DNA of 48,061 nt from IMG/VR virus record IMGVR_UViG_3300010392_000224; one strand, given 5' to 3'. This document shows positions 4,645 to 19,200 of the stretch, in pieces. Position numbers and translations under genes: made by a program. Numbering within the stretch: the first letter of the stretch is position 1; the number at the start of each line of letters is the position of its first letter. The DNA is from a virus. The notes under the pieces are model-generated. The model did no database searches and had not been told where the DNA came from. It saw nothing but the letters and a program-made list of their open reading frames with translations.

Positions 4645-5864
4645 TGTGTCTCTCCTATGTTCGATACCTTTGACACACGCTCATCAACACGGACAGGTAT
4701 GTGGCTGTGGTCAGAGTTAAGTTTGTTCTTGGTCAAGCACAACATACGCTTACCCTGCTGATGGAATACTTCATCCATACCCATACCAATCATAACATCC
4801 ATCTGACCCTGCACACCTACGTTAGAGTAGTACATGTCGTTCTTCTCAATCGCTAGCTTACCATAAGCACTGTCAGATGCTTGGTGTAAGATGATGTTAA
4901 CCAGCCCATGCTTCTTACCCATAGAGCGTAGACGCACAGAGAGGTACTCATTCTTCTCCACCTTGGTAAAGTTACCACGTGTGTCCATGTTAGCCATCTG
5001 ATCCACGATAAGAATATCAGGCTTGTGTTTCTCAACCATAGCCTTGATACCAAATATAGATCCGGGGTCCATCTCGTAGAACACTAGGTTGCTATACCCA
5101 TTCTCAAGAGCACGTCTCCGTGCCTCAGCCTTGTGCTGTATCATGGTGTCCCTGTCCATACCAGACAGACGAGAGTAGAAGCGTGACAGCATAACCATGG
5201 CCGCATCTTCATTACCACAGTACAGTACCTTACGTCCATCGTGCATGAATCCAGCAGCCATGTTAATGGCCAGCATGGACTTACCAACTTCAGTAGGTGC
5301 ATAGATAGCTATCTGCACACCCGGCACTAGGCCACCACCAAGCTTCTCGTTGAGTATACTTGGGTGTACCTTGATTAAGTTTTCTTTCTGGAATGAGGCA
5401 AGTACCTGATCGATGTCAGTATCTACAAAGACAGTACCTTCGTCTGTCGTGTTGGACATATCACGATAGTGGTTATACTTATCGAGATAGTTTGATATGG
5501 CAGTCTCGTCCTTACTGACAAGTGCCTCGGCTAAGTGTTTCTGTGTGGACTGGAGCTTTAGCGTACGGTACTCAGCCAGTGCATTAGGTATAGACACTGG
5601 TGTCAGTGACTTAACTATCCCCTCGAAGAAGTCACCATGCTTGGGGTACTCATTACGTAATTGGTCAATTAAAAACTGACGATCAACTGCTTCTGCGTGT
5701 TCGTCATTCTCATAATACTGCTTGATGTGTGTCGCAATGATCCCTCCCTTGTCATCGAAATCATCAGCGATGTCCATGACTGGTGAGATACTATCATATA
5801 CATTACGATCACTTAGCAGTGCTGCTAGTATTCGTCTTTCACTCAATATTAATACCCCTCTCAA
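4641..5864 (-). CDS. DnaB/T7 gp4-type replicative helicase
   Basis: Walker A is YAPTEVGKS and the Walker B-like motif is DILIVDQ, within a RecA-type core, with a DnaB-like N-terminus (ERRILAALLSD). The start is TTG at 5864, or more likely TTG at 5846, which is preceded by AGAGGGG. Confidence 0.9.
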   Translation of the reverse strand: MRGVLILSERRILAALLSDRNVYDSISPVMDIADDFDDKGGIIATHIKQYYENDEHAEAVDRQFLIDQLRNEYPKHGDFFEGIVKSLTPVSIPNALAEYRTLKLQSTQKHLAEALVSKDETAISNYLDKYNHYRDMSNTTDEGTVFVDTDIDQVLASFQKENLIKVHPSILNEKLGGGLVPGVQIAIYAPTEVGKSMLAINMAAGFMHDGRKVLYCGNEDAAMVMLSRFYSRLSGMDRDTMIQHKAEARRRALENGYSNLVFYEMDPGSIFGIKAMVEKHKPDILIVDQMANMDTRGNFTKVEKNEYLSVRLRSMGKKHGLVNIILHQASDSAYGKLAIEKNDMYYSNVGVQGQMDVMIGMGMDEVFHQQGKRMLCLTKNKLNSDHSHIPVRVDERVSKVSNIGETQ

Positions 5865-6072
5865 CAGCTAACTTATGCTTAATAAAGTCAGATAAGATGG
5901 CGGCAAGTGCTATGCTCTGATCAAGATCTAGATATATGCTAGGTGAAACGTCATCGTCATCCGCATGGAAATTAATATTCTGTATCCTGAATGAGCTAGC
6001 ATTAGTTTCCCAAGTAGCATCAAAGTATGCATCCCCATAATCTGTATCAAGTAGTCGTACCGAACGTAACAT
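5839..6072 (-). CDS. Hypothetical acidic protein (77 aa)
   Basis: The ORF bridges primase and helicase and overlaps both neighbours by about 26 nt. No motif recognised. Confidence 0.5.
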   Translation of the reverse strand: MLRSVRLLDTDYGDAYFDATWETNASSFRIQNINFHADDDDVSPSIYLDLDQSIALAAILSDFIKHKLAVERGINIE

Positions 6073-6835
6073 GTAGTTGTTCCTCCGTCATGTCTTTTGG
6101 GTCTTTGTCAACGAGTACAATAGAAAAGTTTTCAAATAAAATACTCCACTGTCTTTGTAATTCAAACGCTGTTGCCTGTGCATCTTGGTCTAGGCATATA
6201 CGCAGATCGGTTACACCTATACGTACAAGCAGGGATACAAGGCTGTGTGTCATACCAGTACCGAGCAGGGCAGCAGCACATGTGTGCTTGTTAAGCGCCT
6301 CTGCACTTGGTATATCCTCAACTAAGTACAGCGTACCATTAAACTTCTTGTGTGTCAAATGTGGGAAGTGTGCAAGTGGGTCTTCAGTCTCCTCGGTCAG
6401 GATGTTAATTGCCTTCGGAGCATATGAATAGTCAGGACTGATAGACGGGTACCGTCTCTGCACATACCCTATGCACTGACCATACCACGACAGTATTGGA
6501 TAGTACAGGGAGTGAGTGCGCACACTATACTTAACACGTGGTACTATATCAAGAGCAACGCTTGGTATACCTGACGCCAACAGTATATCCCCTGCGTTAA
6601 CGAGGTCATTGGGTAACTGTATTGTCACCCGCTTGCTAGCAGGCTTGGTTGGTTTGTGTGTAGAACTGACACCGCACTTGTTACGGAAGCAGATATAACT
6701 AATCTTACCGTCGCGTGTGTCCACTATCATACACTTCTCTTTAGTACTACCACCTCCACATACTGGACAGCAGATTCTATGTGTGCCGGGCGATAGGGTG
6801 TACCCTCTCTGTACGAATAGCTTCTCTAAGTTCAC
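6047..6835 (-). CDS. DNA primase (zinc ribbon plus TOPRIM)
   Basis: It has an N-terminal Cys4-type pattern (ICCPVCGG...YICFRNKCG). The TOPRIM signature is present: Glu in LYLVEDIPSAE and DxD in CLDQDAQA. It lies directly upstream of the helicase. The start is GTG. Confidence 0.8.
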   Translation of the reverse strand: MNLEKLFVQRGYTLSPGTHRICCPVCGGGSTKEKCMIVDTRDGKISYICFRNKCGVSSTHKPTKPASKRVTIQLPNDLVNAGDILLASGIPSVALDIVPRVKYSVRTHSLYYPILSWYGQCIGYVQRRYPSISPDYSYAPKAINILTEETEDPLAHFPHLTHKKFNGTLYLVEDIPSAEALNKHTCAAALLGTGMTHSLVSLLVRIGVTDLRICLDQDAQATAFELQRQWSILFENFSIVLVDKDPKDMTEEQLHVTFGTTT

Positions 6836-7082
6836 GTGACATTACCTCTACTAGTGTTCGTGCGTGCCAAAGCCTGAATCTGCTTGGCGGTATTGTATCA
6901 GTTGAGGAAATACTAATGCTGCCATCAGTGTACGTCTTAACTATCAAGAAGAACGGTGACGGGTACCTTATTGTCATTGCGTGGTTGGTGGCAACGTTCA
7001 TACCTTTGCGAATGAAGTAATCTCTGATAAACCCCGCACGATACCGATCTACGTGAGTGATCACTCTGGTACTAATGGTCAT
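6777..7082 (-). CDS. Hypothetical protein (101 aa)
   Basis: Its ATG overlaps the stop of the upstream mini-ORF. The 3' end overlaps the primase start by 59 nt. Confidence 0.5.
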   Translation of the reverse strand: MTISTRVITHVDRYRAGFIRDYFIRKGMNVATNHAMTIRYPSPFFLIVKTYTDGSISISSTDTIPPSRFRLWHARTLVEVMSRELREAIRTERVHPIARHT

Positions 7083-7215
7083 GTAGGTCTATCTCAATAA
7101 TACCTTCTTCATCATAGAAGGGGTCTACATCTACGTCGTCACATGCAGGACAGTATGGTTCTCCAGATGGGTCGTAGTGTAATTCATCAAAACAATTAGG
7201 ACAGAAATCAGACAT
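7072..7215 (-). CDS. 47-aa zinc-ribbon-like mini-protein (not in ORF track)
   Basis: Hand translation gives MSDFCPNCFDELHYDPSGEPYCPACDDVDVDPFYDEEGIIEIDLHDH. It has two CxxC pairs, an AAGGAA RBS about 9 nt upstream, and a stop overlapping the ATG of the next gene. Confidence 0.5.
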   Translation of the reverse strand: MSDFCPNCFDELHYDPSGEPYCPACDDVDVDPFYDEEGIIEIDLHDH

Positions 7216-7227
7216 AAAATTATTTCC

Positions 7228-7255
7228 TTGACAAGTTTAGTTTATATGCTATAAT
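7228..7255 (+). promoter_or_regulatory. Near-consensus sigma70-type promoter on the plus strand, antisense to local genes
   Basis: TTGACA (7228-7233), a 16-nt spacer ending in TGc (extended -10), then TATAAT (7250-7255). Every neighbouring gene is on the minus strand. Confidence 0.45.
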
Positions 7256-7260
7256 AATTT

Positions 7261-7302
7261 ATATATAATATACTTACGTATATATATATACATATTATAT
7301 AT
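7261..7302. repeat. AT-only inverted repeat downstream of the GGCT gene
   Basis: ATATATAATAT (7261-7271) is the exact reverse complement of ATATTATATAT (7292-7302). The 20-nt spacer contains TACGTA and a (TA)n run. Confidence 0.6.
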
Positions 7303-7694
7303 TAACCTACCTTGTACTTAACCCAATCACCTGACTCAACAACAGGATACTTAGAGTACCGAGTGTAGTCTTCTACAAAGTAGATCCATGCTTTAGTCAT
7401 TGTACCATCTTCGAGATTGATGTCAACTTCTTTTCGATTATAAAATCGTGGGTACCCTTCCAACCCATCCAAGTGACGGAAGGTATTGTCGTCAACCTCG
7501 TACACTTCTACCTGCACTGGTGCTGGTGGGAAGTCAGGAGAGTGTGTTATCGCAGGGAACCCACCGAGACTGTGCATTGTGAAGGGTTCTGCTGTCTGGC
7601 CACGCTTATGCTCTTCGATGTGGCCTAGATAAGACCGGTGATTGCCCATGTTCTTACGCAGTGAACCATACACTGCTACTAAATGTGTAGACAT
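7302..7694 (-). CDS. Gamma-glutamyl cyclotransferase (GGCT/AIG2-like) family protein
   Basis: 130 aa. The N-terminal motif is VAVYGSLRKNMGNH (YGSL motif), with a later conserved-looking Glu in VQVEVYEVD. Size is typical of the family. Confidence 0.8.
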   Translation of the reverse strand: MSTHLVAVYGSLRKNMGNHRSYLGHIEEHKRGQTAEPFTMHSLGGFPAITHSPDFPPAPVQVEVYEVDDNTFRHLDGLEGYPRFYNRKEVDINLEDGTMTKAWIYFVEDYTRYSKYPVVESGDWVKYKVG

Positions 7695-7695
7695 T

Positions 7696-7962
7696 TTACT
7701 TTTCCTTTACGTCAGGTAGTTTTTCTAATGTCTCTACCAACGTACTCACTGGTACTTTAATAGAATCATTAATGTTTTTGTGGTTCATGCGGCACAGTGT
7801 TGCTACGTATGGAGGAGTTCCATCCGATATTGGTTTCATAAACGCTATCCACACATCACCGTCAATCTTGTTGTAGAATCTAAGCCCTTTGTTAAGGGCT
7901 ATTCTTCTGACCTTCTTGGCAAGTGATGCACTGTAGTGGCAGCGTATGCCACGCGCCGTCAT
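7696..7962 (-). CDS. Hypothetical protein (88 aa)
   Basis: Tightly packed between 7959..8510 (ATGA overlap) and the GGCT gene. No motif. Confidence 0.6.
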   Translation of the reverse strand: MTARGIRCHYSASLAKKVRRIALNKGLRFYNKIDGDVWIAFMKPISDGTPPYVATLCRMNHKNINDSIKVPVSTLVETLEKLPDVKEK

Positions 7963-8510
7963 GCCGCAGAGGCAGCACGTACGGCTGCATCAAGAGCAGC
8001 TAAGATTTCTTCAACGTTGGCATCCTGCTTCTTAACTCGCTTGTCGTCGCTGAAGTCAGGCTTCTTCCACTCACGGGCAGCAACCTTTCCATTCTTATCT
8101 TCATCAGCAGCCCAGATATTGTAGCTGAACGAGGCAACCAAGTTACCTGAGTTCTTGTTCTTGGCTACAGGACCCCGTGTGAATCCAAAGAACTCACAGA
8201 AATCTTCCAAGCTAATATCACCAGCATCTTTACCCTGCTTCCACTGAGAGGAACCGCGCTTAAGGTCTGCCCACTCACCATAGTTAAGGACACAGTCTGC
8301 CACCACTACGATGCCGGGGATCTGTGGTGCCATCTCCATAATGAAGTGAGTGTACATCTTGTGCTTCTGTTCGAGAGTCAGCTCATTGATAACTCCGTCT
8401 GGTCCATCGACGCGGAACCCATGCAGGATTCGTGCGCCGCAGCAATGAGGGAATGAATCAATGTTTGCTGTCATTGTTACACCATAGTGTGTTACTGTTA
8501 CTGTGCTCAT
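7959..8510 (-). CDS. Hypothetical protein (183 aa) with shared C-terminal helix DANVEEILAALDAAVRAASA
   Basis: The preferred start is the ATG at 8510 (MSTVTVTHYGV), preceded by GGAG 7 nt upstream; the track's longer form starts at 8588. It contains FPHCCGARILHGF. Its last 20 aa are encoded by the 59-nt repeat. Confidence 0.7.
   Translation of the reverse strand: MSTVTVTHYGVTMTANIDSFPHCCGARILHGFRVDGPDGVINELTLEQKHKMYTHFIMEMAPQIPGIVVVADCVLNYGEWADLKRGSSQWKQGKDAGDISLEDFCEFFGFTRGPVAKNKNSGNLVASFSYNIWAADEDKNGKVAAREWKKPDFSDDKRVKKQDANVEEILAALDAAVRAASAA
7966..8024. repeat. 59-nt perfect direct repeat, copy 1 (identical to 11510-11568)
   Basis: Exact nucleotide identity by direct comparison. Flanking bases differ on both sides. 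Confidence 0.97.
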
Positions 8511-8526
8511 TTGTTTTCTCCGGGGG

Positions 8527-8817
8527 TCATTGTATCTGTAAACATTTTTTAAATGTTCGTATGTTAATTTTTGGGATGCCGTGCACAACGCTAAAGGCGT
8601 CGGCGTTATCTTGGGTAAGTCTTGAAATTCCTAAACTGTGTGTGCCCACAACCACGTGGATATAGACAGGTACGCTGCTCAGAAATCTATGGTTGGCTCG
8701 TAGGGGGTAACTTAATCCGCCAATAGATGTGGATTGTTTAAGGCTTGCTAATCTTTCCACTATCATTAGGAACTCTTGGTGGGTTACCGTTGTCGTTCTT
8801 ACCATGAAAGATCTCAT
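8527..8817 (-). CDS. Hypothetical protein (96 aa)
   Basis: Its start overlaps the ATP-grasp stop (ATGA) and it fills the gap to the next gene. It contains an AT hairpin near its 3' end. No motif. Confidence 0.45.
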   Translation of the reverse strand: MRSFMVRTTTVTHQEFLMIVERLASLKQSTSIGGLSYPLRANHRFLSSVPVYIHVVVGTHSLGISRLTQDNADAFSVVHGIPKINIRTFKKCLQIQ

Positions 8818-9566
8818 GCGCTAAGATACTCCCGAAATGCAGCTGCATAATTGTCAAGCGTAGTACCCACTAACCCCGGAGCTGTATTAACTTCCAGCAC
8901 GTAGTAGGTATCACTGTGTTGATTGTAGATCAGGTCAACAGCACCGAAGTCAAGACCTAGTGCACCAACTGCATCAACTGCCAGCCGAGTGGCATCAGCA
9001 GGAAGGGAAACATTTTCACGACCAAACACAAAACCATTAGCATGATTACGTACCTGCCAATTAACACTCTCATCAGGTACCTCATGGCTGCGCATCTTGC
9101 GTTGTATATCAAAGGCACGATCACCAAGTACATGTACTCGGTACTCCTCCTGCTTCTTGACATACTTCACATAGAGCGGGGCATTAACGAGTGGGTTCTC
9201 GCTGTCACTTATGACAATACCACGGCCCTCTGATGCTTTGGTTAATGTACGGCACACAACCACTTGGCCCTCACTGAGCCACCGTTGCGCCTCCTCACGG
9301 GACGTTGTAAAAACTGGTATGGTTACATTACCCTCCAGTATATTAAACGCACGTAGCTTGTCTGACGCTACTGCTACTGCATCTGGTCTGTTCAGTACGT
9401 GCGGTGTTGTGTCAGTATAGTCCTGACTGCCCCAGTTTATGACAATGTCAGCTGATCGTGGTCGCCAGCGACTACCTCGCCGCTTAAGTACACGGCAGTT
9501 TAATGCTGCTGCTAGTGATACAGCAGAGCGAGACCCCTGCTTATAGGGGTATATCTTAGTCGACAT
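8814..9566 (-). CDS. ATP-grasp family ligase (RimK-like fold)
   Basis: 250 aa with the motifs CRTLTKASEGRGIVI, EEYRVHVLGDR, QVRNHANGF and the C-terminal DTYYVLEVNTAPGL, which are typical of ATP-grasp carboxylate-amine ligases. Confidence 0.85.
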   Translation of the reverse strand: MSTKIYPYKQGSRSAVSLAAALNCRVLKRRGSRWRPRSADIVINWGSQDYTDTTPHVLNRPDAVAVASDKLRAFNILEGNVTIPVFTTSREEAQRWLSEGQVVVCRTLTKASEGRGIVISDSENPLVNAPLYVKYVKKQEEYRVHVLGDRAFDIQRKMRSHEVPDESVNWQVRNHANGFVFGRENVSLPADATRLAVDAVGALGLDFGAVDLIYNQHSDTYYVLEVNTAPGLVGTTLDNYAAAFREYLSA

Positions 9567-9816
9567 GTAGTGCCTCCTTCATTTGTTCAACAGTTACTTG
9601 TTTAATGCTACCGTTGCCGGGGTTCCAGTTAACAGACCCTGCCGCAATACCAGAACTGTGTGGCGATAGTAGAGGATTCCGTACATAAAAGTACTTGTGG
9701 CTCTGCGCAAGAGAACCAACAGCGCGAGAACCATATAACCTCTCAGCAGCTATGCGTAGTTGTCTTAATTCAGGCATAGAAACAGGTCCACAAAATATGT
9801 AGTCAATGCTAGACAC
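9556..9816 (-). CDS. Hypothetical protein (86 aa)
   Basis: Overlaps both neighbours by 8-11 nt (coupled). No motif. Confidence 0.6.
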   Translation of the reverse strand: MSSIDYIFCGPVSMPELRQLRIAAERLYGSRAVGSLAQSHKYFYVRNPLLSPHSSGIAAGSVNWNPGNGSIKQVTVEQMKEALHVD

Positions 9817-10081
9817 GCAACACCTCCAATAATTTTTCTAGTGGTACCTCAATATAACGACCAGTGCTAAGTACGTGTTCCATAACTGGGGTGCTGGTTA
9901 TACAAAAGCACGAATAATAACCAACCGTCTTGGACAGTCGTATAGCAAAACCAATAACACCATGACTTATTTTTGGATTGATATGGTGTTGTGGTATTAT
10001 CTTTCTTGCCCCATTCATCAGCCTGCGTGCAACATCCAAGTCCGTTACACGGCACACGAGGTAGGGATTCTCAATAGCCAT
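9809..10081 (-). CDS. Hypothetical protein (90 aa)
   Basis: Overlaps the GATase stop region by 11 nt. No motif. Confidence 0.6.
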   Translation of the reverse strand: MAIENPYLVCRVTDLDVARRLMNGARKIIPQHHINPKISHGVIGFAIRLSKTVGYYSCFCITSTPVMEHVLSTGRYIEVPLEKLLEVLRV

Positions 10082-11465
10082 GTGCTTGGTACCTCTTTAG
10101 TTCTTTGAGACAGCTACCAGTCACATGCACATACTCGCCAGAGTCGTGTATCTGTACGTCTTTCAGTTCGTCCAGTGTGAATGGATCGCCGCACCAACAA
10201 CACCCACGAGAAGCTATCTTAAGAGCCAATGAAAGCTCAACCTCAACACCAGCAACCACAGCAGTATCCTCACTGCCGTCGTCATCAGTGCTTGGTTGCT
10301 TCCCTGATTGATCTGTGGAGGATGTCGACGACGTTGTCTGCTTTTTTTCTGGTATGATCACCACGTTACCTTTAGCGTCACGAACAAGAGATGCCATAGC
10401 ATAGTCATCTGCATTCTTTACACTAGTAGGTGTCACGTTCAGGGCGTAGGTGTTGGTGCCCTGTTTCTTTTTCTTACTGAACACTGTAGTAACACCGGTA
10501 ACCTCACCAGAATAGATTTCATCTAGGTCAAGCCGTCCTTTGGAATCAAACTTCAGACTGCTCTTGTGGATGTTATATACAATAACATCATCAGAACCAT
10601 CCCACAGTAAGCCCCACAAAGTACCACGCCCAGTAGTCTGTCCAGAATACTCGATGAACTCAGTAGCCTGAAAGTATATCTCTTCGCTTGGTTTAAACCC
10701 AAGGTCACTAAGACCGGGGAGAGTAGGATTTGCTTTAGTGCTGCGCCCACTCTGTTGATAAGTGGGCACATAGGGAGTGAACTGTCGGCTGGAGTGTGAG
10801 TCCTTGGTGAGCTTAGGTTGTGCCAAGCTTACGGTAAACAAGATACCTTCACGCAGATCAACAACCTTCTCTGGTTCAATGCCGTTACGAGCACACACCA
10901 AATCAATCATCTCACGCTCAGATGCCCACATAATAGAGTCACCACACCAAGCAATGGACAATGTACGCTTGTCGTTGCGTGCAAAGTTTATTGTCTGGTG
11001 CTCGGCGTCATACCATACCAAGGCATAAGATCCATGCAACTGTTCGAGCAGCGCAATGGGATCATCAACGATGGACATCTCATGTGCAATGTTCTCACTA
11101 TCTACGGTAAAGTTACCGGAAGATGAGAGACCACGACGAGACAGCAGTGTGCCGTTGTGTGTCAGGGTTATGTGGTTGTGAGTGAATGGGTGTGCATACA
11201 TATCAATGTGTGCACCGGACGTGGCGTGTCGATTATGCCCGATGATTGCACGGTTTGTGAGTGAGTACAGCCCAGTAGGCTGTGCTAATTGTAGAAAGTC
11301 AGCAGCATTGACTGCTCGCTTATATGTTGATACTAAGCCAGTGTTTGACACTGCACTTACACCAGTACTGTGTGCTCCACGTAACTGGTCAATGAAAAGA
11401 AGCTGCTGAAAAGCATCAACATGCTTCTTGTATAGATTACCGGCAACGCCTACCAATCCGCACAT
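10071..11465 (-). CDS. Class II (Ntn) glutamine amidotransferase domain protein with long C-terminal extension
   Basis: It starts MCGLVG, with the nucleophile Cys directly after Met, then GHNRHATSG and LTHNGTL. The last ~230 aa are not GATase-like: a beta-rich region, a Ser/Thr/Asp linker (TTSSTSSTDQSGKQPSTDDDGSED) and a Cys/His cluster (CCWCGD...H...GSC). Confidence 0.85.
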   Translation of the reverse strand: MCGLVGVAGNLYKKHVDAFQQLLFIDQLRGAHSTGVSAVSNTGLVSTYKRAVNAADFLQLAQPTGLYSLTNRAIIGHNRHATSGAHIDMYAHPFTHNHITLTHNGTLLSRRGLSSSGNFTVDSENIAHEMSIVDDPIALLEQLHGSYALVWYDAEHQTINFARNDKRTLSIAWCGDSIMWASEREMIDLVCARNGIEPEKVVDLREGILFTVSLAQPKLTKDSHSSRQFTPYVPTYQQSGRSTKANPTLPGLSDLGFKPSEEIYFQATEFIEYSGQTTGRGTLWGLLWDGSDDVIVYNIHKSSLKFDSKGRLDLDEIYSGEVTGVTTVFSKKKKQGTNTYALNVTPTSVKNADDYAMASLVRDAKGNVVIIPEKKQTTSSTSSTDQSGKQPSTDDDGSEDTAVVAGVEVELSLALKIASRGCCWCGDPFTLDELKDVQIHDSGEYVHVTGSCLKELKRYQAHGY

Positions 11466-11469
11466 CTAT

Positions 11470-12435
11470 TTATCCTCGCTCCGTTGGGGTGGCTACTGCT
11501 ATATTCTCAGCAGAGGCAGCACGTACGGCTGCATCAAGAGCAGCTAAGATTTCTTCAACGTTGGCATCGCCAGCAGTACTAGGGCCAGCGTATTTAGGAT
11601 TACGCTTAGGTTTAAACTCTTCGTTAACCATGAGGTCAATCGCATTGAGCAGGTTGTTCTGGTAGTACTCAAAGTACACACCATCCTCAAGGAGCTGACG
11701 AGAGTATGAACCAAACACACGGGTAATGTACTCTTCTGGACCAGTACGGATGTGCTTGAGTACAGTAGATGGAGACTTAACGGTAGCCGCGTAGTCAACC
11801 AACAGCAACAGGATACTCACCCATCGCATGATACGTGGTACCTCAAGGGTGCCCTCATGTGCACGGAACTCTACACTGCCACGCTCTTGTACTGAGTGCA
11901 GGTTAATGCCTGTGTACTTCTGCCACCGGCGAATAGCATGTCGAACATTATCTGAGTTACCATGTACAACGCTACGCATCAAAGACATTTGTTCTAATGC
12001 AGCTGTTACACCGGGGCAATAGATGTTATCGTAACGATCCTTACCGCCCTGCATATACAGAGCAGCCTCACTACCAACGTATGCCAGAAGCAGGGCTGCT
12101 AACTGTGTGGTAGAGAAGTCACGTACATCTACATGAACATGCAATGAGCAGCGCTCGCTGACGTTACAGTCAGGAGCAGCACGTAAGATACCAGTCAGTT
12201 GTTGCAGTGAGTCTCGCAGATCAGCACCGCCAAGGGGTTGTCGCAGTACCAACTCAACGCCGTTGTTGCGCAGAGAAGAGTCACCCTTGACTGCCCAATA
12301 CTTACTGTCACGTATCTGTTGTGCATTCTCTACCTCTACCTCAATACCTACGAGGCGTGTGGTTGGAATAGATACATGTGCACGGGTCTCACGAATGTCA
12401 GGGGTCAGCCCCTCGAATAAATTATGCAGCTGCAT
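11470..12435 (-). CDS. Putative amidoligase (Amidoligase_2-like, GS/GCS-type fold)
   Basis: 321 aa with RLVGIEVEVE near the N-terminus, SLHVHVD and GSVEFRAHEGT. The C-terminus carries the shared helix DANVEEILAALDAAVRAASA followed by ENIAVATPTERG. Confidence 0.75.
   Translation of the reverse strand: MQLHNLFEGLTPDIRETRAHVSIPTTRLVGIEVEVENAQQIRDSKYWAVKGDSSLRNNGVELVLRQPLGGADLRDSLQQLTGILRAAPDCNVSERCSLHVHVDVRDFSTTQLAALLLAYVGSEAALYMQGGKDRYDNIYCPGVTAALEQMSLMRSVVHGNSDNVRHAIRRWQKYTGINLHSVQERGSVEFRAHEGTLEVPRIMRWVSILLLLVDYAATVKSPSTVLKHIRTGPEEYITRVFGSYSRQLLEDGVYFEYYQNNLLNAIDLMVNEEFKPKRNPKYAGPSTAGDANVEEILAALDAAVRAASAENIAVATPTERG
11510..11568. repeat. 59-nt perfect direct repeat, copy 2 (identical to 7966-8024)
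   Basis: Exact nucleotide identity by direct comparison. Confidence 0.97.
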
Positions 12436-12997
12436 TTAAGATTTCCTTTGTGAAGGCGTCAGAGATCAGGCCGTTTGTAATTACTGGTTCACCATTAACA
12501 ATCTCTCCAACAATACGAGATCGTAGCATGATGCATGGGTTCTCATACTCACCGGTATGATTGATCCAGAAGTTGCGAGACAGGGCACAGCTTGTATTAG
12601 GCTTGCTTGTGGCAGCCAGCGCTTCGGCGTACGAATAATACGTTGGGTTATACATAGCCATGACTACGTCATAGCCAAACCGAACACCGCCCTGTAAGTT
12701 AAGGTACTTATCAACAATGCCACGACGCCACTGGCGAGCGGGCATACGACCGGCATAGAATGCTTTGTCTTTCTTAACACTGTATACCCCGGATGCAGGG
12801 AACTCATACACAATGGTTGGGTCATTGATACTGAGTGTAGTAGTCTCTTCTCCGTTACCAACAGTAACAACGAATCGATTACTACTACGCCCCTCATGTA
12901 CCAGCATAGGTACAATCTTATCACCAACACGCTTGCCTAAGTAGCAACGTGCATAAGTACGTGTGATGTCTTCACTACTCATGTTCAGTTGTTTCAT
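12422..12997 (-). CDS. Hypothetical protein (191 aa)
   Basis: A well-packed ORF whose stop overlaps the amidoligase start region by 14 nt. No motif recognised. Confidence 0.7.
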   Translation of the reverse strand: MKQLNMSSEDITRTYARCYLGKRVGDKIVPMLVHEGRSSNRFVVTVGNGEETTTLSINDPTIVYEFPASGVYSVKKDKAFYAGRMPARQWRRGIVDKYLNLQGGVRFGYDVVMAMYNPTYYSYAEALAATSKPNTSCALSRNFWINHTGEYENPCIMLRSRIVGEIVNGEPVITNGLISDAFTKEILNAAA

Positions 12998-13000
12998 TCG

Positions 13001-13294
13001 TTAGTTTCTCCGCTGCATTAAATTATGACGAAAGAGTTTGAATATACCATGCCAGTAGCCGTCGCCCTGTTGAGAGTTCGCCCATGAGAATCCTCCGGCG
13101 ACGGTGTTGCCATGCATATCTGGCTTAGGGCTCGTGTCCAACTGGTGTATATACCTGATTGGGTCCTTGGCCTGCTTAACCCAAACTTCCTTAGCACCGC
13201 ACTCTTCCAGAGTCTTGATAAAGATCAGTGCACAGGGCCCGAGCGTTACCTTTAGTTCACTTGCCATTGTATACACCCACAACAGTGGTGTCAA
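13001..13294 (-). CDS. Hypothetical protein, distant member of the FxW..G..YW small-protein family
   Basis: The C-terminal GFSWANSQQGDGYWHGIF resembles the motif of the four tandem paralogs at 16357-17624. The start is possibly at 13267 (MASELKV). Confidence 0.55.
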   Translation of the reverse strand: MTPLLWVYTMASELKVTLGPCALIFIKTLEECGAKEVWVKQAKDPIRYIHQLDTSPKPDMHGNTVAGGFSWANSQQGDGYWHGIFKLFRHNLMQRRN

Positions 13295-13487
13295 ACTTTG
13301 GTACGAACTGCACGTTGTTCAAGTACATGCCGCGATCAACAATAACGTCTACTGTGAATGGCAGTGGTCTTCCTGCCATGTGCCTTAGACTCTTATTAAC
13401 GTGCTCACTGAACATTAAAGTGCGCAGCTTCTGTACCAGTTTGGTACGTGCGTCCTCCTTTCTAACTGTTACTACGTAACGTTTCAT
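13257..13487 (-). CDS. Hypothetical protein (76 aa)
   Basis: Starts 1 nt after the stop of the ligase gene. No motif. Confidence 0.6.
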   Translation of the reverse strand: MKRYVVTVRKEDARTKLVQKLRTLMFSEHVNKSLRHMAGRPLPFTVDVIVDRGMYLNNVQFVPKFDTTVVGVYNGK

Positions 13488-13488
13488 G

Positions 13489-14241
13489 TTATGGCATCTC
13501 CAGATTTAATTCACGGATAAGTTTCTTAGCACCACCAACATCAGATGTGTTAATGATACGAATGATTTCTTCCGGGTTGTAGTGAATGGCGTTAGTCACC
13601 GCATCTTTAGCACGATTGAACACCCACTCCATGAGGTCAGCATGGTTAAGCCAGAAGTTTGACAACGAGCGGTACTCTACACCGTAAGGTTTATTACGAT
13701 AGGCACCCGCTGCGCCATACTGAGCACGTCGCTGTGTGTCAGAGTCCATAACTACTGACGGAATACCAAGAGTAATATCCATTGTGCGGATAATCTCCCG
13801 ATTCTTTTCTACGGAACCCGCATCATATCCCACATGTACGTGGCCACCGGCTGTGCGCAGTTCCGTCAATGGTGACGGGGCGTTGTTCTGCTCACCGGTG
13901 TATGCGTTGAAGTCGGGATCACACCCAAACATCAGAGCCTGTCGACCAGATCGAATCAGCTCTTGCTTAGTGAAGCGATGACTAGCACAGATGTGCAGGT
14001 CTAGTGGTGCTACCTTAGTTCGTAGCTGATGCATCACGGTGGTGATGTTGGAAATAAATTCACGGCTGGTGCGTGCTGGCTCAATGTTAAACTCAGCGAG
14101 AACGTTGTCCTCTTGCAGCGCACCACACGCTACTGGGATGGGAGCAGTCTTCGTACCACCAACGTGACCAATGGCAGATACGATTGTACCGTGAGGGTCA
14201 ATCAGGAATACTTCTGGGTCTGTACCAATTAAAATGTTCAA
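13489..14241 (-). CDS. phiEco32-type COOH-NH2 ligase (type 2) family protein
   Basis: 250 aa. It begins MNILIGTDPEVFLIDPHG, followed by EDNVLAEFNIEP, GGHVHVGY and YGVEYRSLSNFW. As I recall it, this is the signature of the phage COOH.NH2 ligase-type 2 family. Confidence 0.7.
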   Translation of the reverse strand: MNILIGTDPEVFLIDPHGTIVSAIGHVGGTKTAPIPVACGALQEDNVLAEFNIEPARTSREFISNITTVMHQLRTKVAPLDLHICASHRFTKQELIRSGRQALMFGCDPDFNAYTGEQNNAPSPLTELRTAGGHVHVGYDAGSVEKNREIIRTMDITLGIPSVVMDSDTQRRAQYGAAGAYRNKPYGVEYRSLSNFWLNHADLMEWVFNRAKDAVTNAIHYNPEEIIRIINTSDVGGAKKLIRELNLEMP

Positions 14242-14510
14242 GGGTTATTCTCCTTTGTGTAGGTTACTTGCTTCTTAACTTCACTGGAAATCTGCTCAAC
14301 GAGACGATTGTAGATTACCGGGGCTCGTGTCAGTTCCCATGAGGGTGTTCGACGCTCGTCCTCAGAAAGAAACAATTCTTCTAGGGCATCAGAGACGCCT
14401 CGGTTGATAGACGCATCAAGGGCGCGCTCGGTTATTAAGTCAAGCCCGACCTGTGTAATAACAGTCTCAGTTAGTTCTTCAACTGCTTTCTTAGTTGCTT
14501 TACCAAACAT
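14238..14510 (-). CDS. Hypothetical protein (90 aa)
   Basis: First gene after the AT-rich intergenic region. Its stop overlaps the ligase start (ATGA-type). Confidence 0.65.
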   Translation of the reverse strand: MFGKATKKAVEELTETVITQVGLDLITERALDASINRGVSDALEELFLSEDERRTPSWELTRAPVIYNRLVEQISSEVKKQVTYTKENNP

Positions 14511-14570
14511 GATATATCCTATTTAATATATTTATAGTATATATACATACCAAATAATACTAATGGTAGT

Positions 14571-14598
14571 ACTATATACCACAGCTTGATGATAACAA
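14571..14598 (-). promoter_or_regulatory. Candidate sigma70-type promoter in AT-rich intergenic region (14511-14630)
   Basis: The minus strand reads TTGTTA-N16-TATAGT, overlapping a TGgTATATA extended -10 alternative. It is preceded by a 6-bp hairpin ATGGCA...TGCCAT (14598-14620) just after the upstream gene. Confidence 0.3.
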
Positions 14599-14630
14599 TG
14601 GCACCGATAAACGCTGCCATCAATTTGAGA

Positions 14631-15275
14631 TCAGTCTTTAGACCCTTCACTGTGCTTGCTCCCGTCATTCATGTGAGCATTGACACTAGATACAAACACG
14701 CTGGCTTTGTACAGTACCTTGAGTAATGCAATTAATCCGAAGTAAACTCCCACTAGTATACCAATGTAACCCGCTAGTGGTGCGGCCTTAGTACTCAACC
14801 AACTCACCGAGTACAGTAATGATAACCACGCAGGGTTAGCTACTTCACTAGCAAGCTGACATAGGTAGTTAATACCACCAACTACCACATACACTACCCA
14901 CAATATAACACCTGCGATAGTTGCACCGCCTATCATATCATCATTGACTTTAATCTTGTTGAATAAGATAAGCTCCTGTTTACTTATAACTATCTTCTTG
15001 TAATCATTGTGTAAATTAGGATAGCGCTCCTTGTCCCGAGCATACTCACGTTCTCCTATTTTACGACCTTTATGGTCGAAGTAGTTGTACTCTAGTTCTA
15101 CTCCGTCATATGGCACCCACTTACATATGTAAGACATGAACTTATCTGCTGCCTCAATAGGCATTGCATTACGGGCAGCTTGACGTAAGAACACGCCCAG
15201 TAGATATACACAGGGCAGCGCAAGCGTTACCGTGAATACTGTTACTACAAACCAGAATCCAATTAGATCAATCAT
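14631..15275 (-). CDS. Multi-pass membrane protein, paralog 2
   Basis: The preferred start is MIDLIGFWF at 15275, within the junction AATGATTGA. It has an N-terminal TM segment, a charged middle and C-terminal TM segments. Its tail (NAHMNDGSKH) resembles that of paralog 1 (TNHMSDKEIH). Confidence 0.75.
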   Translation of the reverse strand: MIDLIGFWFVVTVFTVTLALPCVYLLGVFLRQAARNAMPIEAADKFMSYICKWVPYDGVELEYNYFDHKGRKIGEREYARDKERYPNLHNDYKKIVISKQELILFNKIKVNDDMIGGATIAGVILWVVYVVVGGINYLCQLASEVANPAWLSLLYSVSWLSTKAAPLAGYIGILVGVYFGLIALLKVLYKASVFVSSVNAHMNDGSKHSEGSKD

Positions 15276-15777
15276 TGTGTATCTCCTTGTCACTCATATG
15301 ATTAGTAACTTTCTCTTTAAACTTCAGAGCATAGTAGATGTACTTGGTAGCCATACGTGCAGCCAATACTAACATCAAGGTCATGGCTACGTATGCGCTA
15401 GCCGGTGCTGTTACTTCTGCTGCTTTAGATACCCATGTAATGATACCTAAGCCTTCATCAAACCACCGCGCGCATGCCATTAACCACCACACCGCTGACA
15501 TGACACATGACACCCCCCCAGCGGAGGTGAATAGCTTTTCAGGTATTTTTATTCTTTCACCGAAGAAAGTACAGTACGTGCTATGGTAACCACTAGGAAG
15601 ACGATATGAATTAAAATCCCAGAACCAGTCATTAAAGCGACGACTGTCGCGGTAATCTGGTATCGCCCCAGCAATGCAGGGTATTACCAAAAAGAATATT
15701 AATAAGAAAAGCGGTGGTATTACACCTATATAGGTGAGCACTGACACGTTAAACCAATAGCCAATCAAGTCAATCAT
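15268..15777 (-). CDS. Multi-pass membrane protein, paralog 1
   Basis: It starts MIDLIGYWF in an identical AATGATTGA overlap with the upstream mini-ORF and has several hydrophobic segments. Confidence 0.75.
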   Translation of the reverse strand: MIDLIGYWFNVSVLTYIGVIPPLFLLIFFLVIPCIAGAIPDYRDSRRFNDWFWDFNSYRLPSGYHSTYCTFFGERIKIPEKLFTSAGGVSCVMSAVWWLMACARWFDEGLGIITWVSKAAEVTAPASAYVAMTLMLVLAARMATKYIYYALKFKEKVTNHMSDKEIHND

Positions 15778-15880
15778 TATCTTTATCCTTGTACATTAGG
15801 TTGTTAATTGCAAGGGTTAGGGTGGCAGTACCTATGAGTACTATCACCAGTATTGTACTAAATAAAACAAACTCCCACAT
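15770..15880 (-). CDS. 36-aa single-TM peptide (not in ORF track)
   Basis: Hand translation gives MWEFVLFSTILVIVLIGTATLTLAINNLMYKDKDND. Its ATG overlaps the endolysin stop (TGATG). It ends in ND-stop in the same AATGATTGA junction as paralog 1. Confidence 0.4.
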   Translation of the reverse strand: MWEFVLFSTILVIVLIGTATLTLAINNLMYKDKDND

Positions 15881-16356
15881 CACGGTCTCCTGTAGAACAC
15901 ATGCCGCTGGTGTGTGAACACATGAACAAGGACACTGCTCCACCGTGGAGATACATACACGGCATGGAAGTTAAGTAACTCAGTAGCATGTGGCACGCTT
16001 AGGTTTGTTTGGTAGTAGATGAATGAGTATGCTATCAGGTACGCCAGTACATAAGCACCCCTGTCATACGGGTGATCAACTCTACCATCCTGTGTCCAAC
16101 TGAACTGACGGTGCTGCCTTACCACACCACACACGGTGTCCGGGTATGCACTGTGGAAAACCCTGTTCATCGTCACCTGTGCTACTAGCTCTTGGCCTAG
16201 CATGTCCTCACCACGTGCCTCGTGGTAGATGTTAAGTGCAAGGCACTGTACATCAGTCAAATCCTGCGTGAGTACATCACGTATGTACTGATCAGGAACA
16301 GACAGAGCAGCAACGTGCGTGCTGACCAGCATTAATAATGTGAGTATAAACTTCAT
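15880..16356 (-). CDS. SleB/Hydrolase_2-type cell wall hydrolase (endolysin) with N-terminal signal or SAR-like segment
   Basis: It has a hydrophobic N-terminus (MKFILTLLMLVSTHVAALS) followed by CLALNIYHEARGEDMLGQELVAQVTMNRV...PDTVCGVV..HRQFSW, matching the SleB-type motif pattern. Confidence 0.85.
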   Translation of the reverse strand: MKFILTLLMLVSTHVAALSVPDQYIRDVLTQDLTDVQCLALNIYHEARGEDMLGQELVAQVTMNRVFHSAYPDTVCGVVRQHRQFSWTQDGRVDHPYDRGAYVLAYLIAYSFIYYQTNLSVPHATELLNFHAVYVSPRWSSVLVHVFTHQRHVFYRRP

Positions 16357-17281: not shown

Positions 17282-17282
17282 G

Positions 17283-19135: not shown

Positions 19136-19200
19136 GTCGTGCCCTCCTCGTACTAGTGCACATAATAAAGGGCACCCTTGAGGTACCCTTGATATGCAAA

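Follow-up and report, generated by a model that had tools for sequence, protein, structure and literature searches.

What do the amide-bond enzymes encoded side by side in this viral DNA make together, and on what substrate do they act? Within the window, the whole stretch of 48,061 nucleotides that we analyzed, the run from 7302 to 14241 contains five enzyme genes, listed here from the 5' end of the coding strand:

13489 to 14241, minus strand: phiEco32-type COOH-NH2 ligase (CNL), a GS/GCS-fold carboxylate-amine ligase (Pfam PF14395, 1.5e-14; PHROG 3815, 9.5e-85)
11470 to 12435, minus strand: Amidoligase_2 (AL2), a second GS-fold carboxylate-amine ligase (Pfam PF12224, 7e-16)
10071 to 11465, minus strand: class II (Ntn) glutamine amidotransferase (GATase; GATase_6, E = 4.7e-11, residues 1 to 222 only)
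8814 to 9566, minus strand: ATP-grasp ligase of the RimK/MptN/LysX/CofF (alpha-L-glutamate ligase) group (PHROG 2599, 5.8e-91)
7302 to 7694, minus strand: GGACT/AIG2-type gamma-glutamyl(amine) cyclotransferase (GGCT; Pfam PF06094, E = 2e-24)

The first-pass annotation had placed these five genes on one strand and named their families from short motifs. The coordinates and the common minus strand were borne out, profile searches (Pfam, PHROG, and NCBIfam) recovered the families for all five genes, and the quoted motifs are present, with catalytic residues that are intact in every enzyme and invariant across a panel of 15 to 16 sequences. At each junction from 14510 down to 7302 the genes either overlap, by 1 to 38 nt, or stand no more than 16 nt apart, a packing compatible with the translational coupling that the annotation had proposed for most of the genes. 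The COOH-NH2 ligase is the first conserved gene of the module and GGCT is the last, followed on its 3' side by 86 nt of AT-rich intergenic DNA and then by the primase/helicase/PolA genes. A SleB-like cell wall hydrolase and membrane proteins are encoded directly upstream of the module, both in the window and in a relative, locus L020. A 47-amino-acid Zn-ribbon/acidic open reading frame (ORF) at 7072 to 7215 shows no conservation.

The five enzymes

In CNL, residues D8, E10, D45, E50, C107, H134, H136, E189, and R191 are invariant among 15 sequences, and in AL2 the same holds for E32, E34, E61, H99, H101, E189, and R191 across the panel of 15 to 16. AL2 also has a lineage-specific C-terminal extension, which bears the shared tail helix described below. 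Sequence searches detected no solved or characterized relative of either ligase, so homology cannot give their substrate class. The ATP-grasp enzyme matches NCBIfam rimK_fam (7e-12) and MptN (1e-11), both far under the curated cut-offs (45 versus 143 bits for the RimK family), and Pfam RimK at an E value of only 1.7e-4; its closest solved structures are RimK-type alpha-L-glutamate ligases (E about 1e-3), and E141, R143, H145, D211, E225, and N227 are invariant in the panel.

The GATase consists of a catalytic domain (amino acids 1 to 222; 10800 to 11465), a variable middle rich in beta structure, and, at the C terminus, a Zn-ribbon-like motif (about 10107 to 10205), a CxxC...CxxC tail found in about 12 of 15 relatives. 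No Pfam family matches its C-terminal half in any relative, and no synthase domain is recognizable there. C2, R79, N104, G105, and D122 are invariant in the panel, and R79/N104-G105/D122 align with the glutamine site of GlmS (R73/N98-G99/D123), so that the residues that hold glutamine by its free alpha-amino and alpha-carboxyl groups are retained. Among solved structures, GGCT lies closest to 3jub, the human gamma-glutamylamine cyclotransferase (1.5e-7), and its E79 pairs in the alignment with E82, the catalytic residue of human GGACT. A gamma-glutamyl-amine cyclotransferase requires a gamma-glutamyl head group with a free alpha-amino group. Taken together, the families support the chemistry that had been read from them, namely, ATP-dependent amide-bond formation, amidotransfer or hydrolysis of glutamine or gamma-glutamyl groups, and trimming of gamma-glutamyl amines.

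A CNL homologue is present in 318 phage records, and the family occurs at 47 loci among 185,579 genomes, nearly all of them phage-sized or short MAG contigs; the family is essentially restricted to phages. This bears on the proposal that such genes are auxiliary metabolic genes raising host nitrogen assimilation or the gamma-glutamyl cycle and glutathione synthesis, as claimed for Phage-ZRK32. The folds do parallel the gamma-glutamyl cycle (GCS-like ligases, ATP-grasp, Ntn hydrolase, and GGCT), growth effects were reported in the eLife paper on that phage, and a glutaredoxin adjoins the module of RIO-1. However, the ligase family is all but missing from cellular genomes and so does not represent a pathway borrowed from a host, the ATP-grasp enzyme groups with RimK/MptN/LysX with zero match to GshB, every carrier is a virulent-type podovirus, and the ZRK32 record carries an UNVERIFIED_ORG flag and holds a module that is LUZ24-like in order and sequence. 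We therefore regard an auxiliary metabolic role as highly improbable.

Co-conservation and genomic neighborhood

The first-pass annotation had asked in advance whether homologues in related phages are co-localized or scattered. They are clustered: the four ligase and amidotransferase genes occur together in all 14 loci of a set drawn from isolate phages and IMG/VR and in all 40 of the IMG/VR loci whose flanks were adequate, and in the 96 loci compared for gene order they always share one strand, despite 23 distinct orders. Linkage kept through so much rearrangement points to selection and not to inherited synteny alone. The co-occurrence lies far beyond chance and is strong evidence that the four core genes act in one pathway. 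The GATase gene adjoins CNL or AL2 in 94 of 94 loci. GGCT is present in 57 of the 96 and adjoins the ATP-grasp gene in 47 of those 57; its absence from about 40% of loci implies that a trimming step is not obligatory.

In the loci examined, the module adjoins replication genes and not lysis genes, and its site directly upstream of primase/helicase and PolA is invariant in four phage lineages. This siting, together with the GATase Zn-ribbon and Tudor/PWWP-like barrels weakly matched in a partner protein (p191, described below), would suit a module that makes or installs an amino-acid or gamma-glutamyl-type adduct on phage DNA, nucleotides, or tRNA against restriction. The siting may nevertheless be mere inherited backbone order. 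As the first-pass annotation had noted, the whole 48-kb window holds no thymidylate synthase, hydroxymethylase, or nucleotide kinase, and neither DpdA nor a glycosyltransferase is found there; the BASEL authors ascribe restriction-modification resistance to a locus for a dCTP deaminase/nucleotidyltransferase, which is absent from the window, and our literature search found no paper tying these families to hypermodification. Nucleic-acid modification is thus quite improbable.

A core partner protein and the other small ORFs

Nine interleaved ORFs lacking recognizable motifs had been proposed as substrates, carriers, or specificity factors. At most two can fill such a role: one that belongs to the core and one confined to the sub-lineage.

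12422 to 12997, minus strand: p191 (191 amino acids), conserved, non-enzymatic-looking partner (PHROG 11055/4877, unknown function)
7959 to 8510, minus strand: p183 (183 amino acids), lineage-specific, with a fold tentatively read as divergent GNAT-like; at its C terminus a PDFSD linker leads into an amphipathic helix that AL2 also has
7966 to 8024: copy 1 of a 59-nt perfect direct repeat (100% identity), encoding the p183 C-terminal helix DANVEEILAALDAAVRAASA
11510 to 11568: copy 2 of the repeat (100% identity), encoding the same helix close to the AL2 C terminus

The first, p191, is a beta-barrel protein and the sole core member among the nine. It had been counted with the miscellaneous unknowns, but it is present in 12 of 14 and 77 of 96 loci, in the order CNL-p191-AL2 in all 77. 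Its stop overlaps the AL2 start by 14 nt here (median −25 nt across loci), which suggests stoichiometric co-production. The AF2 model (pLDDT 91) shows tandem beta-barrels; searches of the PDB returned no match beyond partial Tudor/SH3-like barrels (E > 0.1), and matches in BFVD are uncharacterized phage proteins only. The homologues, in 388 representative clusters, are all standalone, and only D10, P30, R88, G93, and G164 are invariant.

For p183, the most likely start is the ATG at 8510, preceded by a GGAG Shine-Dalgarno sequence and called so in three independent assemblies. Its 12 homologues (39 to 51% identity) keep C23-C24-G25, D72, C105, and N-x-NSGN, and L020 has a counterpart at the same position. 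The top ∼45 Foldseek matches in the PDB to its AF2 model (pLDDT 79) are all GNAT acyltransferases, weak ones (E of 6e-3 to 0.1, TM of 0.35 to 0.46), and sequence-level searches gave the assignment zero support; a GNAT-like fold is accordingly suggested only tentatively by the model. Both repeat-bearing genes are identical in the three assemblies. In L020 the p183 and AL2 tails are alike as protein and not as DNA.

The other seven ORFs are not conserved in the 95 related loci compared:

14238 to 14510, minus strand: 90 amino acids, upstream of CNL; no Pfam or PHROG match and no homologue in 95 loci
13257 to 13487, minus strand: 76 amino acids, between CNL and p191
13001 to 13294, minus strand: 97 amino acids, between CNL and p191; absent from public-assembly gene calls
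9809 to 10081, minus strand: 90 amino acids, between the GATase and ATP-grasp genes; lineage-specific
9556 to 9816, minus strand: 86 amino acids, between the GATase and ATP-grasp genes; lineage-specific
8527 to 8817, minus strand: 96 amino acids, between the ATP-grasp gene and p183; not in public-assembly gene calls
7696 to 7962, minus strand: 88 amino acids, between p183 and GGCT; no family matches

The first of these probably lies outside the pathway, and the pair at 9556 to 10081 had no match in family searches and zero homologues in the locus panel. The 97-amino-acid product belongs to an F-x-W...G-x-x-[YF]-W paralogue family also encoded at 16357 to 17624, and the 13001 to 13487 pair weakly matches L020 o100 (E = 1e-3). 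The 88-amino-acid ORF has an orthologue in L020 only (o83; phmmer E = 4.5e-7), and the 96-amino-acid ORF has a weak positional match there (o87; E about 0.06). Since the ORFs at 8527 to 8817 and 13001 to 13294 are missing from public-assembly gene calls, it is uncertain whether these two are coding. In phages CW02 and CVT22, Shine-Dalgarno sequences and overlapping start codons account for the C-terminal tails that small ORFs have in common.

A proposed build-then-trim pathway

The reading that we favor, with a probability of roughly 0.5, is that the block is a phage-restricted amidoligase module (phiEco32, 7-11, LUZ24-like, and Zobellviridae) for the cytoplasmic, ATP-driven building and then trimming of an amide-linked, glutamate-centered conjugate on a host compound that bears an amine or a carboxylate. 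The family identities, the intact active sites, the obligate co-localization, the rules of adjacency, and the restriction to phages are observed; from them we infer a step order, a role for the GATase, and a type of substrate. The module would form one operon, co-transcribed with the replication genes just downstream. CNL, and AL2 with p191 as its obligate beta-barrel partner, would convert carboxylates to acyl-phosphates and couple these to amines. The GATase would then feed glutamine-derived ammonia to the adjoining ligase, converting carboxylate to carboxamide, or hydrolyze a gamma-glutamyl amide. Third, the RimK-type ATP-grasp enzyme would put glutamate or a similar amino acid onto a terminal carboxylate, and fourth, the GGACT-type cyclotransferase would release the gamma-glutamyl group from the amine as 5-oxoproline, an add-then-remove logic resembling that of BtrJ/BtrG in butirosin synthesis. 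In this sub-lineage only, the GNAT-like p183, tethered via the C-terminal helix that it has in common with AL2, may finally cap an amine.

Most likely the pathway acts on a small molecule and not on a macromolecule, and the leading candidates are a peptidoglycan-precursor peptide and a polyamine; p191 aside, no gene for a peptide or protein substrate is conserved in the module across the 95 related loci. The tandem beta-barrels of p191 and the GATase Zn-ribbon are, however, of module types that bind protein or nucleic acid, and a macromolecular target fits them at least equally well. The ligases could put glutamate or a short peptide on a host or phage protein, by RimK/TTL-like C-terminal glutamylation or as a PafA-like gamma-glutamyl-lysine isopeptide, with p191 as adaptor or target, the GATase as a Dop-like deamidase or hydrolase, and GGACT clearing gamma-glutamyl-lysine remnants. 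The nearest relatives of the ATP-grasp enzyme are RimK/LysX-type enzymes working on protein C termini, PafA and Dop belong to the GS-fold ligases, and the known GGACT substrate is gamma-glutamyl-epsilon-lysine. The conserved p191, translationally coupled to AL2, and the docking-type helix common to AL2 and p183 would also suit protein targets, which Aravind-group papers suggest for related phage ATP-grasp enzymes. Against this, the module has no conserved Pup-like or LysW-like small protein (the ORF at 7072 to 7215 does not qualify), p191 lacks an invariant Lys or Glu acceptor, the CW02/CVT22 tails have the explanation given above, and our literature search found zero experimental reports. On balance, we consider protein modification unlikely.

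Comparison with known systems

[quoted passage not shown] The published interpretation would have the enzymes form unusual stem-peptide linkages or amidate the stem peptide, altering the wall after infection for superinfection exclusion. The ATP-grasp enzyme also weakly matches D-Ala-D-Ala ligases, MurT/GatD and AsnB/LtsA are precedents for a glutamine-dependent amidation of carboxylates in the stem peptide, and both here and in L020 the module is directly preceded by genes for the SleB-like hydrolase and membrane proteins. Yet the interpretation is purely inferential, there is no Mur ligase family member (AL2 versus MurE, E = 0.05, is noise), the hydrolase linkage is not kept in LUZ24 and phiEco32 types, and the module always sits beside replication genes instead of lysis genes. 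We consider such remodeling rather unlikely as the specific outcome; it is a sub-case of the build-then-trim pathway and not a true alternative to it.

In phiEco32, a small ORF within the module, the middle gene phi32_gp79, encodes gp79, a characterized sigma-70 inhibitor unrelated to the pathway. The block described here is another copy of this known four-to-six-enzyme cluster of tailed phages, predicted to make and trim glutamate-type amide bonds.

Gene organization and genome setting

All ORFs named in the first-pass annotation, which had described a five-enzyme gamma-glutamyl block interleaved with nine ORFs of no recognizable motif, are present on the minus strand, and profile-HMM searches against Pfam, PHROGs and NCBIfam recovered each enzyme family claimed. 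The block is a copy of the already described phage amidoligase module of the phiEco32/LUZ24/Zobellviridae type.

Genes of the module and its flanks, with E values of profile matches
15880-16356, SleB-like cell-wall hydrolase (PF07486)
13489-14241, minus strand, phiEco32-type COOH-NH2 ligase (CNL; COOH-NH2_lig, PF14395, 1.5e-14)
12422-12997, minus strand, p191, a 191-aa protein (PHROG 11055/4877)
11470-12435, minus strand, Amidoligase_2 (AL2; PF12224, 7e-16)
10071-11465, minus strand, class II glutamine amidotransferase (GATase; GATase_6, 4.7e-11, residues 1-222 only)
8814-9566, minus strand, ATP-grasp ligase (Pfam RimK, weak, 1.7e-4; PHROGs, 5.8e-91)
7959-8510, minus strand, p183, a 183-aa protein (12 homologues, 39-51% identity)
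7302-7694, minus strand, GGACT/AIG2-type gamma-glutamyl(amine) cyclotransferase (GGCT; PF06094, 2e-24)
6047-6835, primase
4641-5864, helicase
2468-4459, family A polymerase (PolA)

From 14510 to 7302 the ORF junctions show gaps of 16 nt or less, the majority overlapping, and a search for a convincing terminator within 7302-14510 found none. Because of these tight junctions and the lack of a convincing internal terminator, the block reads as a single operon. Downstream, beyond an 86-nt AT-rich spacer, follow the primase, helicase, family A polymerase and 5'-3' exonuclease genes, placing the module directly upstream of primase/helicase and PolA. The window is essentially the entire genome of a podovirus of ∼48 kb, which also encodes a terminase, a portal protein, a class II ribonucleotide reductase, a metallophosphoesterase and endonuclease I. 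The same phage occurs in at least three independent metagenome assemblies. Megablast against 50,697 phage records found no near DNA relative and PADLOC defence and counter-defence models gave 0 matches to the 10 proteins searched.

The flanks carry further features. Positions 7216-7301 form the only sizeable intergenic gap of the region, AT-rich and palindromic at 7243-7284, with a promoter-like element on the plus strand (7228-7255; perfect 12/12 sigma-70 consensus, extended -10 TG) that runs antisense to the module and diverges from the replication genes; the gap could act as a promoter, either antisense or bidirectional, or as an origin-like region. Immediately upstream of the module, 14519-16356 holds three to four small membrane-protein ORFs, two of them paralogous (14631-15293 and 15268-15777, both beginning M[IT]DLIG[FY]WF), and the SleB-like hydrolase, and is probably a lysis cassette. 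The hydrolase-then-module layout recurs in L020, a related locus of the same genome type as the window. A 19-nt sequence within the amidoligase gene, GGTACCTCAAGGGTGCCCT at 11837-11855, is the perfect complement of the hairpin stem at 19169-19187; this hairpin (19168-19190, minus strand) is the best terminator-like one of the region. The positions 19164-19182 and 20031-20049 go with this set, a further, degenerate copy lying near 20031-20057.

Conservation of the module across phages

In the literature the module is called a 'putative peptidoglycan modification' cassette or module, with Iyer et al. (2009) and Hardies et al. (2013) given as its source (as cited in PMC5498523 and PMC11945000). 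As in its other carriers, genes for PF14395, PF12224, the class II GATase and the ATP-grasp enzyme are clustered on one strand in the window, and an AIG2/GGACT-type cyclotransferase is associated with the cluster, as it is in 57 of 96 loci. The first-pass annotation was right to treat these families as one unit but implied too much novelty, the cluster having been known since 2009. The present analysis adds, among other things, p191 as a sixth core component, a set of adjacency rules and a helix shared by p183 and AL2.

Homologues of the CNL were found in 318 of the 50,697 phage records. The closest, with 45-47% identity, belong to LUZ24-like Pseudomonas phages; next come those of Kuravirus coliphages, 7-11, phages of Vibrio, Aeromonas and Proteus, and Zobellviridae. 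In annotated regions, an equivalent gene set lies upstream of primase/helicase and PolA in CVT22, CW02, UFV-P2, phiEco32, 7-11, PA11, Vp_R1, a Rhizobium phage and RIO-1, and the order CNL-p191-AL2-GATase-ATP-grasp-GGCT of the window is that of UFV-P2/LUZ24 and of phiEco32.

Co-conservation was assessed with profiles built from the window proteins and run on six-frame ORFs. CNL, AL2, GATase and ATP-grasp occurred together in 14/14 loci (ten isolate phages and four IMG/VR contigs), with GGCT in 9/14. A profile scan of IMG/VR detected a CNL relative in at least 565 contigs; we retrieved 80 and took presence counts from the 40 whose flanks reached 6 kb or more upstream and 8 kb or more downstream. 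AL2, GATase and ATP-grasp were on the same strand in all 40, and GGCT was present in 24. The predicted co-localization of the core four in related phages is therefore borne out. The genes appear in 23 distinct orders over the 96 loci, and since they are kept together through repeated rearrangement, functional linkage rather than mere descent is indicated. Three rules of adjacency stand out: CNL-p191-AL2 is invariant (77/77), the GATase adjoins one of the two GS-fold ligases, AL2 or CNL, in 94/94, and ATP-grasp and GGCT are neighbors in 47/57. These rules suggest sub-complexes of CNL-p191-AL2, of GATase with a GS-like ligase and of ATP-grasp with GGCT.

Among 185,579 species-representative genomes a CNL relative was found at 47 loci only, nearly all on phage-sized (∼40-50 kb) or short MAG contigs, and the family is practically phage-restricted. 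A class I glutamine amidotransferase/peptidase C26-like protein of ∼210 aa (GICRGGQ…HPE) is a frequent seventh member (32/96 loci; for example 432-1052 in locus L010, 14575-15222 in L002, the CW02 locus, and 7959-8579 in L078) that opens the module in loci of the Zobellviridae type and in some others and is missing from the window. Two ORFs of ∼300 aa upstream of CNL in the LUZ24 and phiEco32 types have no Pfam match and no window counterpart.

Catalytic residues and family assignment of the enzymes

Residue invariance was scored on a panel of 15-16 homologues of each enzyme. The invariant catalytic residues are C2, R79, N104-G105 and D122 in the GATase; Y9-G10 and E79 in the GGCT; E141, R143, H145, D211 and E225-x-N227 in the ATP-grasp enzyme; E32-x-E34, E61, H99-x-H101 and E189-F-R191 in AL2; and D8, E10, D45, E50, C107, H134-x-H136 and E189-Y-R191 in the CNL. 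Searches of AL2, CNL, p191 and p183 against the sequences of PDB chains gave no matches.

The GATase thus carries the class II signature, a catalytic Cys after the N-terminal Met together with the R, N-G and D glutamine-binding residues, which align to R73, N98-G99 and D123 of the E. coli GlmS glutaminase domain. These residues bind glutamine through its free alpha-carboxylate and alpha-amino groups. In the phage enzyme the C-terminal half is variable; it matched no Pfam domain in the window protein or in 10 relatives, and a fused acceptor or synthase domain like those of GlmS, PurF, AsnB or GltB is not recognizable. About 12 of 15 relatives end in a CxxC…CxxC Zn-ribbon-like element, which in the window reads GCCWCGDP…H…H…C (10107-10205, residues ∼421-453). 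This tail is kept in LUZ24-, phiEco32-, 7-11-, PA11-, CW02-, CVT22- and RIO-1-type proteins, whereas the ∼200 residues preceding it are not conserved; we found no published description of it in the literature examined.

The nearest solved relative of the GGCT is the human gamma-glutamylamine cyclotransferase (GGACT) 3jub (1.5e-7). Both the YGS/TL motif (Y9-G10-S-L12) and the catalytic Glu are present, window E79 aligning with catalytic E82 of the human enzyme, a column in which the E82Q mutant 3jud has Q. The ATP-grasp enzyme matches rimK_fam (7e-12), MptN (1e-11), LysX, CofF, graspetide maturases and Ddl in NCBIfam, and its 45.3 bits against the RimK family TIGR00768 fall below the curated cut-off of 143.4, so that it is best regarded as a superfamily-level relative of RimK only. 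No GshB model is among its 18 NCBIfam matches, and it does not classify as a glutathione synthetase.

This bears on the notion that the module is an auxiliary metabolic gene (AMG) set for nitrogen or glutathione metabolism. ZRK32 was published as a chronic Planctomycetes phage carrying nitrogen-metabolism AMGs; its module has the LUZ24-type gene order with a CNL 43.5% identical to that of the window. Its published function was read from annotation labels, 'glutathione synthase' among them, to which the profiles lend no support. With the module phage-restricted and its ATP-grasp enzyme not GshB-like, an AMG role is disfavoured. The ZRK32 record (L014; OP650935, 'Poriferisphaera phage ZRK32') is flagged UNVERIFIED_ORG.

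p191 is a sixth core component

A ∼190-aa protein between CNL and AL2 (PHROG 11055/4877), p191 in the window, is a feature of the module first defined in this analysis. It was found in 12/14 and 77/96 loci, directly ahead of AL2 whenever present, and typically overlaps the AL2 start (median -25 nt; 14 nt in the window). Its AlphaFold model (pLDDT 91.2, pTM 0.85) is mainly beta with a C-terminal helix. Compared with the PDB, the model has no significant neighbor, the best partial matches being Tudor/PWWP/SH3-like barrels (E>0.1, TM about 0.2), and BFVD returned uncharacterised phage proteins only. An exhaustive profile search gave 388 representative clusters, all of standalone proteins of ∼170-230 aa. 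We infer that p191 is a non-catalytic partner of AL2, acting as an adaptor or substrate-presenting subunit.

We considered whether loci without a separate p191 carry it as part of the amidoligase and rejected this: the ∼200-aa N-terminal extension of long AL2 proteins matched the p191 profile at E=0.16, hhalign gave a probability of 0.2%, and the 388 clusters include no informative fusion.

Small ORFs, p183 and a shared tail helix

The nine interleaved ORFs, taken together in the first-pass annotation as candidate pathway members, prove to be a mixture: p191 belongs to the core, p183 is lineage-specific, with one of its homologues at the equivalent position in L020, and the other seven are not conserved, having no homologue in 95 loci save weak or positional matches in L020. 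Two of the seven are uncalled in public assemblies. One small ORF within the phiEco32 module, gp79, is a middle gene whose product has been characterised as a sigma-70 inhibitor. Interleaved small genes therefore need not be pathway members, and gp79 dates the module to the middle class.

The Foldseek search with the p183 model (pLDDT 79) returned ∼45 consecutive GNAT acyltransferase matches, all weak (E 6e-3 to 0.1, TM 0.35-0.46). Pfam and PDB sequence searches gave no GNAT match for p183, and its alignment shows no evident Q/RxxGxG/A motif. On the model, p183 may tentatively be called GNAT-like, in which case the window would hold all three amidoligase/acyl-transfer folds treated by Iyer et al.; earlier literature already notes GNATs as capping enzymes linked to such ligases.

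A perfect 59-nt direct repeat lies inside the p183 and AL2 genes (7966-8024 and 11510-11568) and encodes a common C-terminal amphipathic helix, DANVEEILAALDAAVRAASA. An assembly artefact was rejected because three independent assemblies carry identical versions of the two genes. The L020 tails resemble each other as protein but have diverged as DNA. The pattern suggests a docking or dimerisation helix held alike by gene conversion. Recombination between the two copies would remove the GATase, the ATP-grasp enzyme and most of p183.

Several other small genes were noted. Paralogy among window ORFs 9809, 9556, 8527 and 7696 was unsupported (pairwise E about 0.5). A family of ∼100-aa paralogues comprises four tandem ORFs at 16357-17624 and one copy in the module (13001-13294); its C-terminal motif, F-x-W-x(4-6)-G-x-x-[YF]-W-x-E-[IL]-x-x-E-W, also occurs in L020 o100 and Vibrio phage Vp_R1 ORF 061, and its sole PHROG match is weak (16354, E=0.002). 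Between GGCT and primase, a 47-aa ORF (7072-7215), called in public assemblies, combines a CPNC…CPAC zinc ribbon with a strongly acidic C-terminal tail, which gives it a LysW-like look. A LysW-like carrier role was rejected because other module-carrying phages have no conserved counterpart; PA11 has an unrelated Cys-rich 64-aa ORF at the matching position. In the Zobellviridae loci of CW02 (L002, 7656-15455) and CVT22 (L001, 8557-15401) the enzyme genes are interspersed with 8-12 paralogous genes of ∼65-80 aa with N-terminal FKxGDxV and one common tail per genome, …P-x-LLEENV* or …SLENE*, respectively. At the codon level these tails are GGAG or GGAGGAG plus the overlapping or adjacent ATG of the following gene. 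The best explanation is that a paralogous gene family carries them as translational-coupling cassettes, not as ligase recognition tags, and such tails are absent from the window.

A putative build-and-trim pathway and its targets

We propose that the module encodes a cytoplasmic, middle-expressed, ATP-driven pathway that would build and trim a glutamate-centred amide conjugate on a host compound. We give roughly even odds (about 0.5) to such a pathway with a substrate that is most likely a small molecule. The GATase lacks a recognizable synthase domain, has a variable half with a Zn-ribbon-like end and always lies adjacent to a GS-fold ligase, which leads to two candidate roles: it may form a two-protein glutamine-dependent amidoligase that delivers ammonia to an acyl-phosphate, by analogy with MurT/GatD or AsnB-type enzymes, or it may hydrolyze a gamma-glutamyl amide, as EgtC does. 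The ATP-grasp/GGACT pair could add a gamma-glutamyl group that is later released as 5-oxoproline, in the manner of BtrJ/BtrG. GGACT-type enzymes require a gamma-glutamyl head group with a free alpha-amino group, joined to an amine, so one or more intermediates are expected to be gamma-glutamyl-amines.

Peptidoglycan-precursor peptides, which the literature proposes, and polyamines are the leading candidate substrates. Genes for a SleB-like hydrolase and membrane proteins, immediately upstream of the module both here and in L020, marginally favour the peptidoglycan idea. Modification of a protein is what p191, the GATase Zn-ribbon, the shared putative docking helix and the RimK/LysX affinity of the ATP-grasp enzyme would argue for, and we consider it less likely but a serious rival. 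Modification of nucleic acid is improbable. In its favour, the module is invariably beside replication genes, and Gordonclarkvirinae resist restriction-modification without explanation, but the window holds no base-activating enzyme, and the BASEL authors credit other genes, missing from the window. As first noted, the window has no thymidylate synthase, hydroxymethylase or nucleotide kinase, and its ORFs of at least 120 aa include no dUMP hydroxymethylase/thymidylate-synthase homologue, 5-HMUDK kinase or aGPT-Pplase. A specific form of this idea, a novel amino-acid or gamma-glutamyl-type covalent mark on phage DNA or a nucleotide precursor with the Zn-ribbon and p191 serving nucleic-acid recognition, is a long shot that, if true, would account for the restriction resistance of Gordonclarkvirinae.

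The module is widespread. Our literature search turned up neither biochemical work on PF12224 or PF14395 nor genetic analysis of the module, nor experimental work on glutamylation, hypermodification or essentiality of its enzymes. The question of the module's product goes back to the 2009 description. To it the present analysis adds constraints, namely p191 and p183, the helix that p183 shares with AL2, the rules of adjacency, the Zn-ribbon of the GATase and the restriction to phages. Four to six enzymes are a large outlay for a 45-50 kb genome, and the module is carried by Kuravirus coliphages, by abundant podoviruses of the sea and by LUZ24-like Pseudomonas phages that are relevant to therapy, among others. 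Identifying the product would uncover a new means by which phages alter host chemistry, be it cell wall, polyamines, proteins or DNA, and would give a function to two Pfam families without a characterised member.

Comparison with known systems

In pupylation, the GS-fold ligase PafA and deamidase Dop act on the Pup tag. The module likewise has two paralogous GS/GCS-fold carboxylate-amine enzymes around a Glu/Gln gamma-carboxyl and a deamidation step; however, it has no Pup-like tag gene, deamidation would fall to the Ntn GATase instead of a Dop paralogue, and no sequence similarity to PafA or Dop was detected. MurT/GatD and AsnB/LtsA resemble it in having a glutaminase gene beside the gene of an ATP-dependent carboxylate-activating ligase. 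They differ in that the phage ligase is GS-like and not of the Mur-ligase or PP-loop type, and the phage GATase belongs to class II, carrying a Zn-ribbon tail but no synthase domain.

RimK, MptN, CofF and LysX are the best sequence and structure neighbors of the window ATP-grasp enzyme, which keeps the ATP/Mg residues but is shorter (250 aa), has no RimA/RimB or LysW partner and, at 45 bits against a RimK-family cut-off of 143, scores far too low for membership. In butirosin biosynthesis, the ATP-grasp ligase BtrJ adds a gamma-glutamyl group and the cyclotransferase BtrG removes it as 5-oxoproline. The phage module may share this add-then-remove protecting-group logic, having an ATP-grasp ligase and a GGCT-fold enzyme, but it has no acyl carrier protein, decarboxylase or aminoglycoside genes, and its ATP-grasp enzyme is nearer the alpha-L-glutamate ligases.

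The closest likeness is to the phiEco32/7-11/LUZ24-like/PA11-CW02-RIO-1 module, with five enzyme families in common on a single strand upstream of replication genes. The window differs from these carriers in its backbone, with separate primase and helicase, a class II ribonucleotide reductase and content like that of HMO-2011 and OM43 phages. It does without the class I GATase/peptidase C26 of 32/96 loci, and its GATase has 464 aa vs 677 aa in phiEco32. To the shared set it adds the tentatively GNAT-like p183 and the matching tail helix on AL2.
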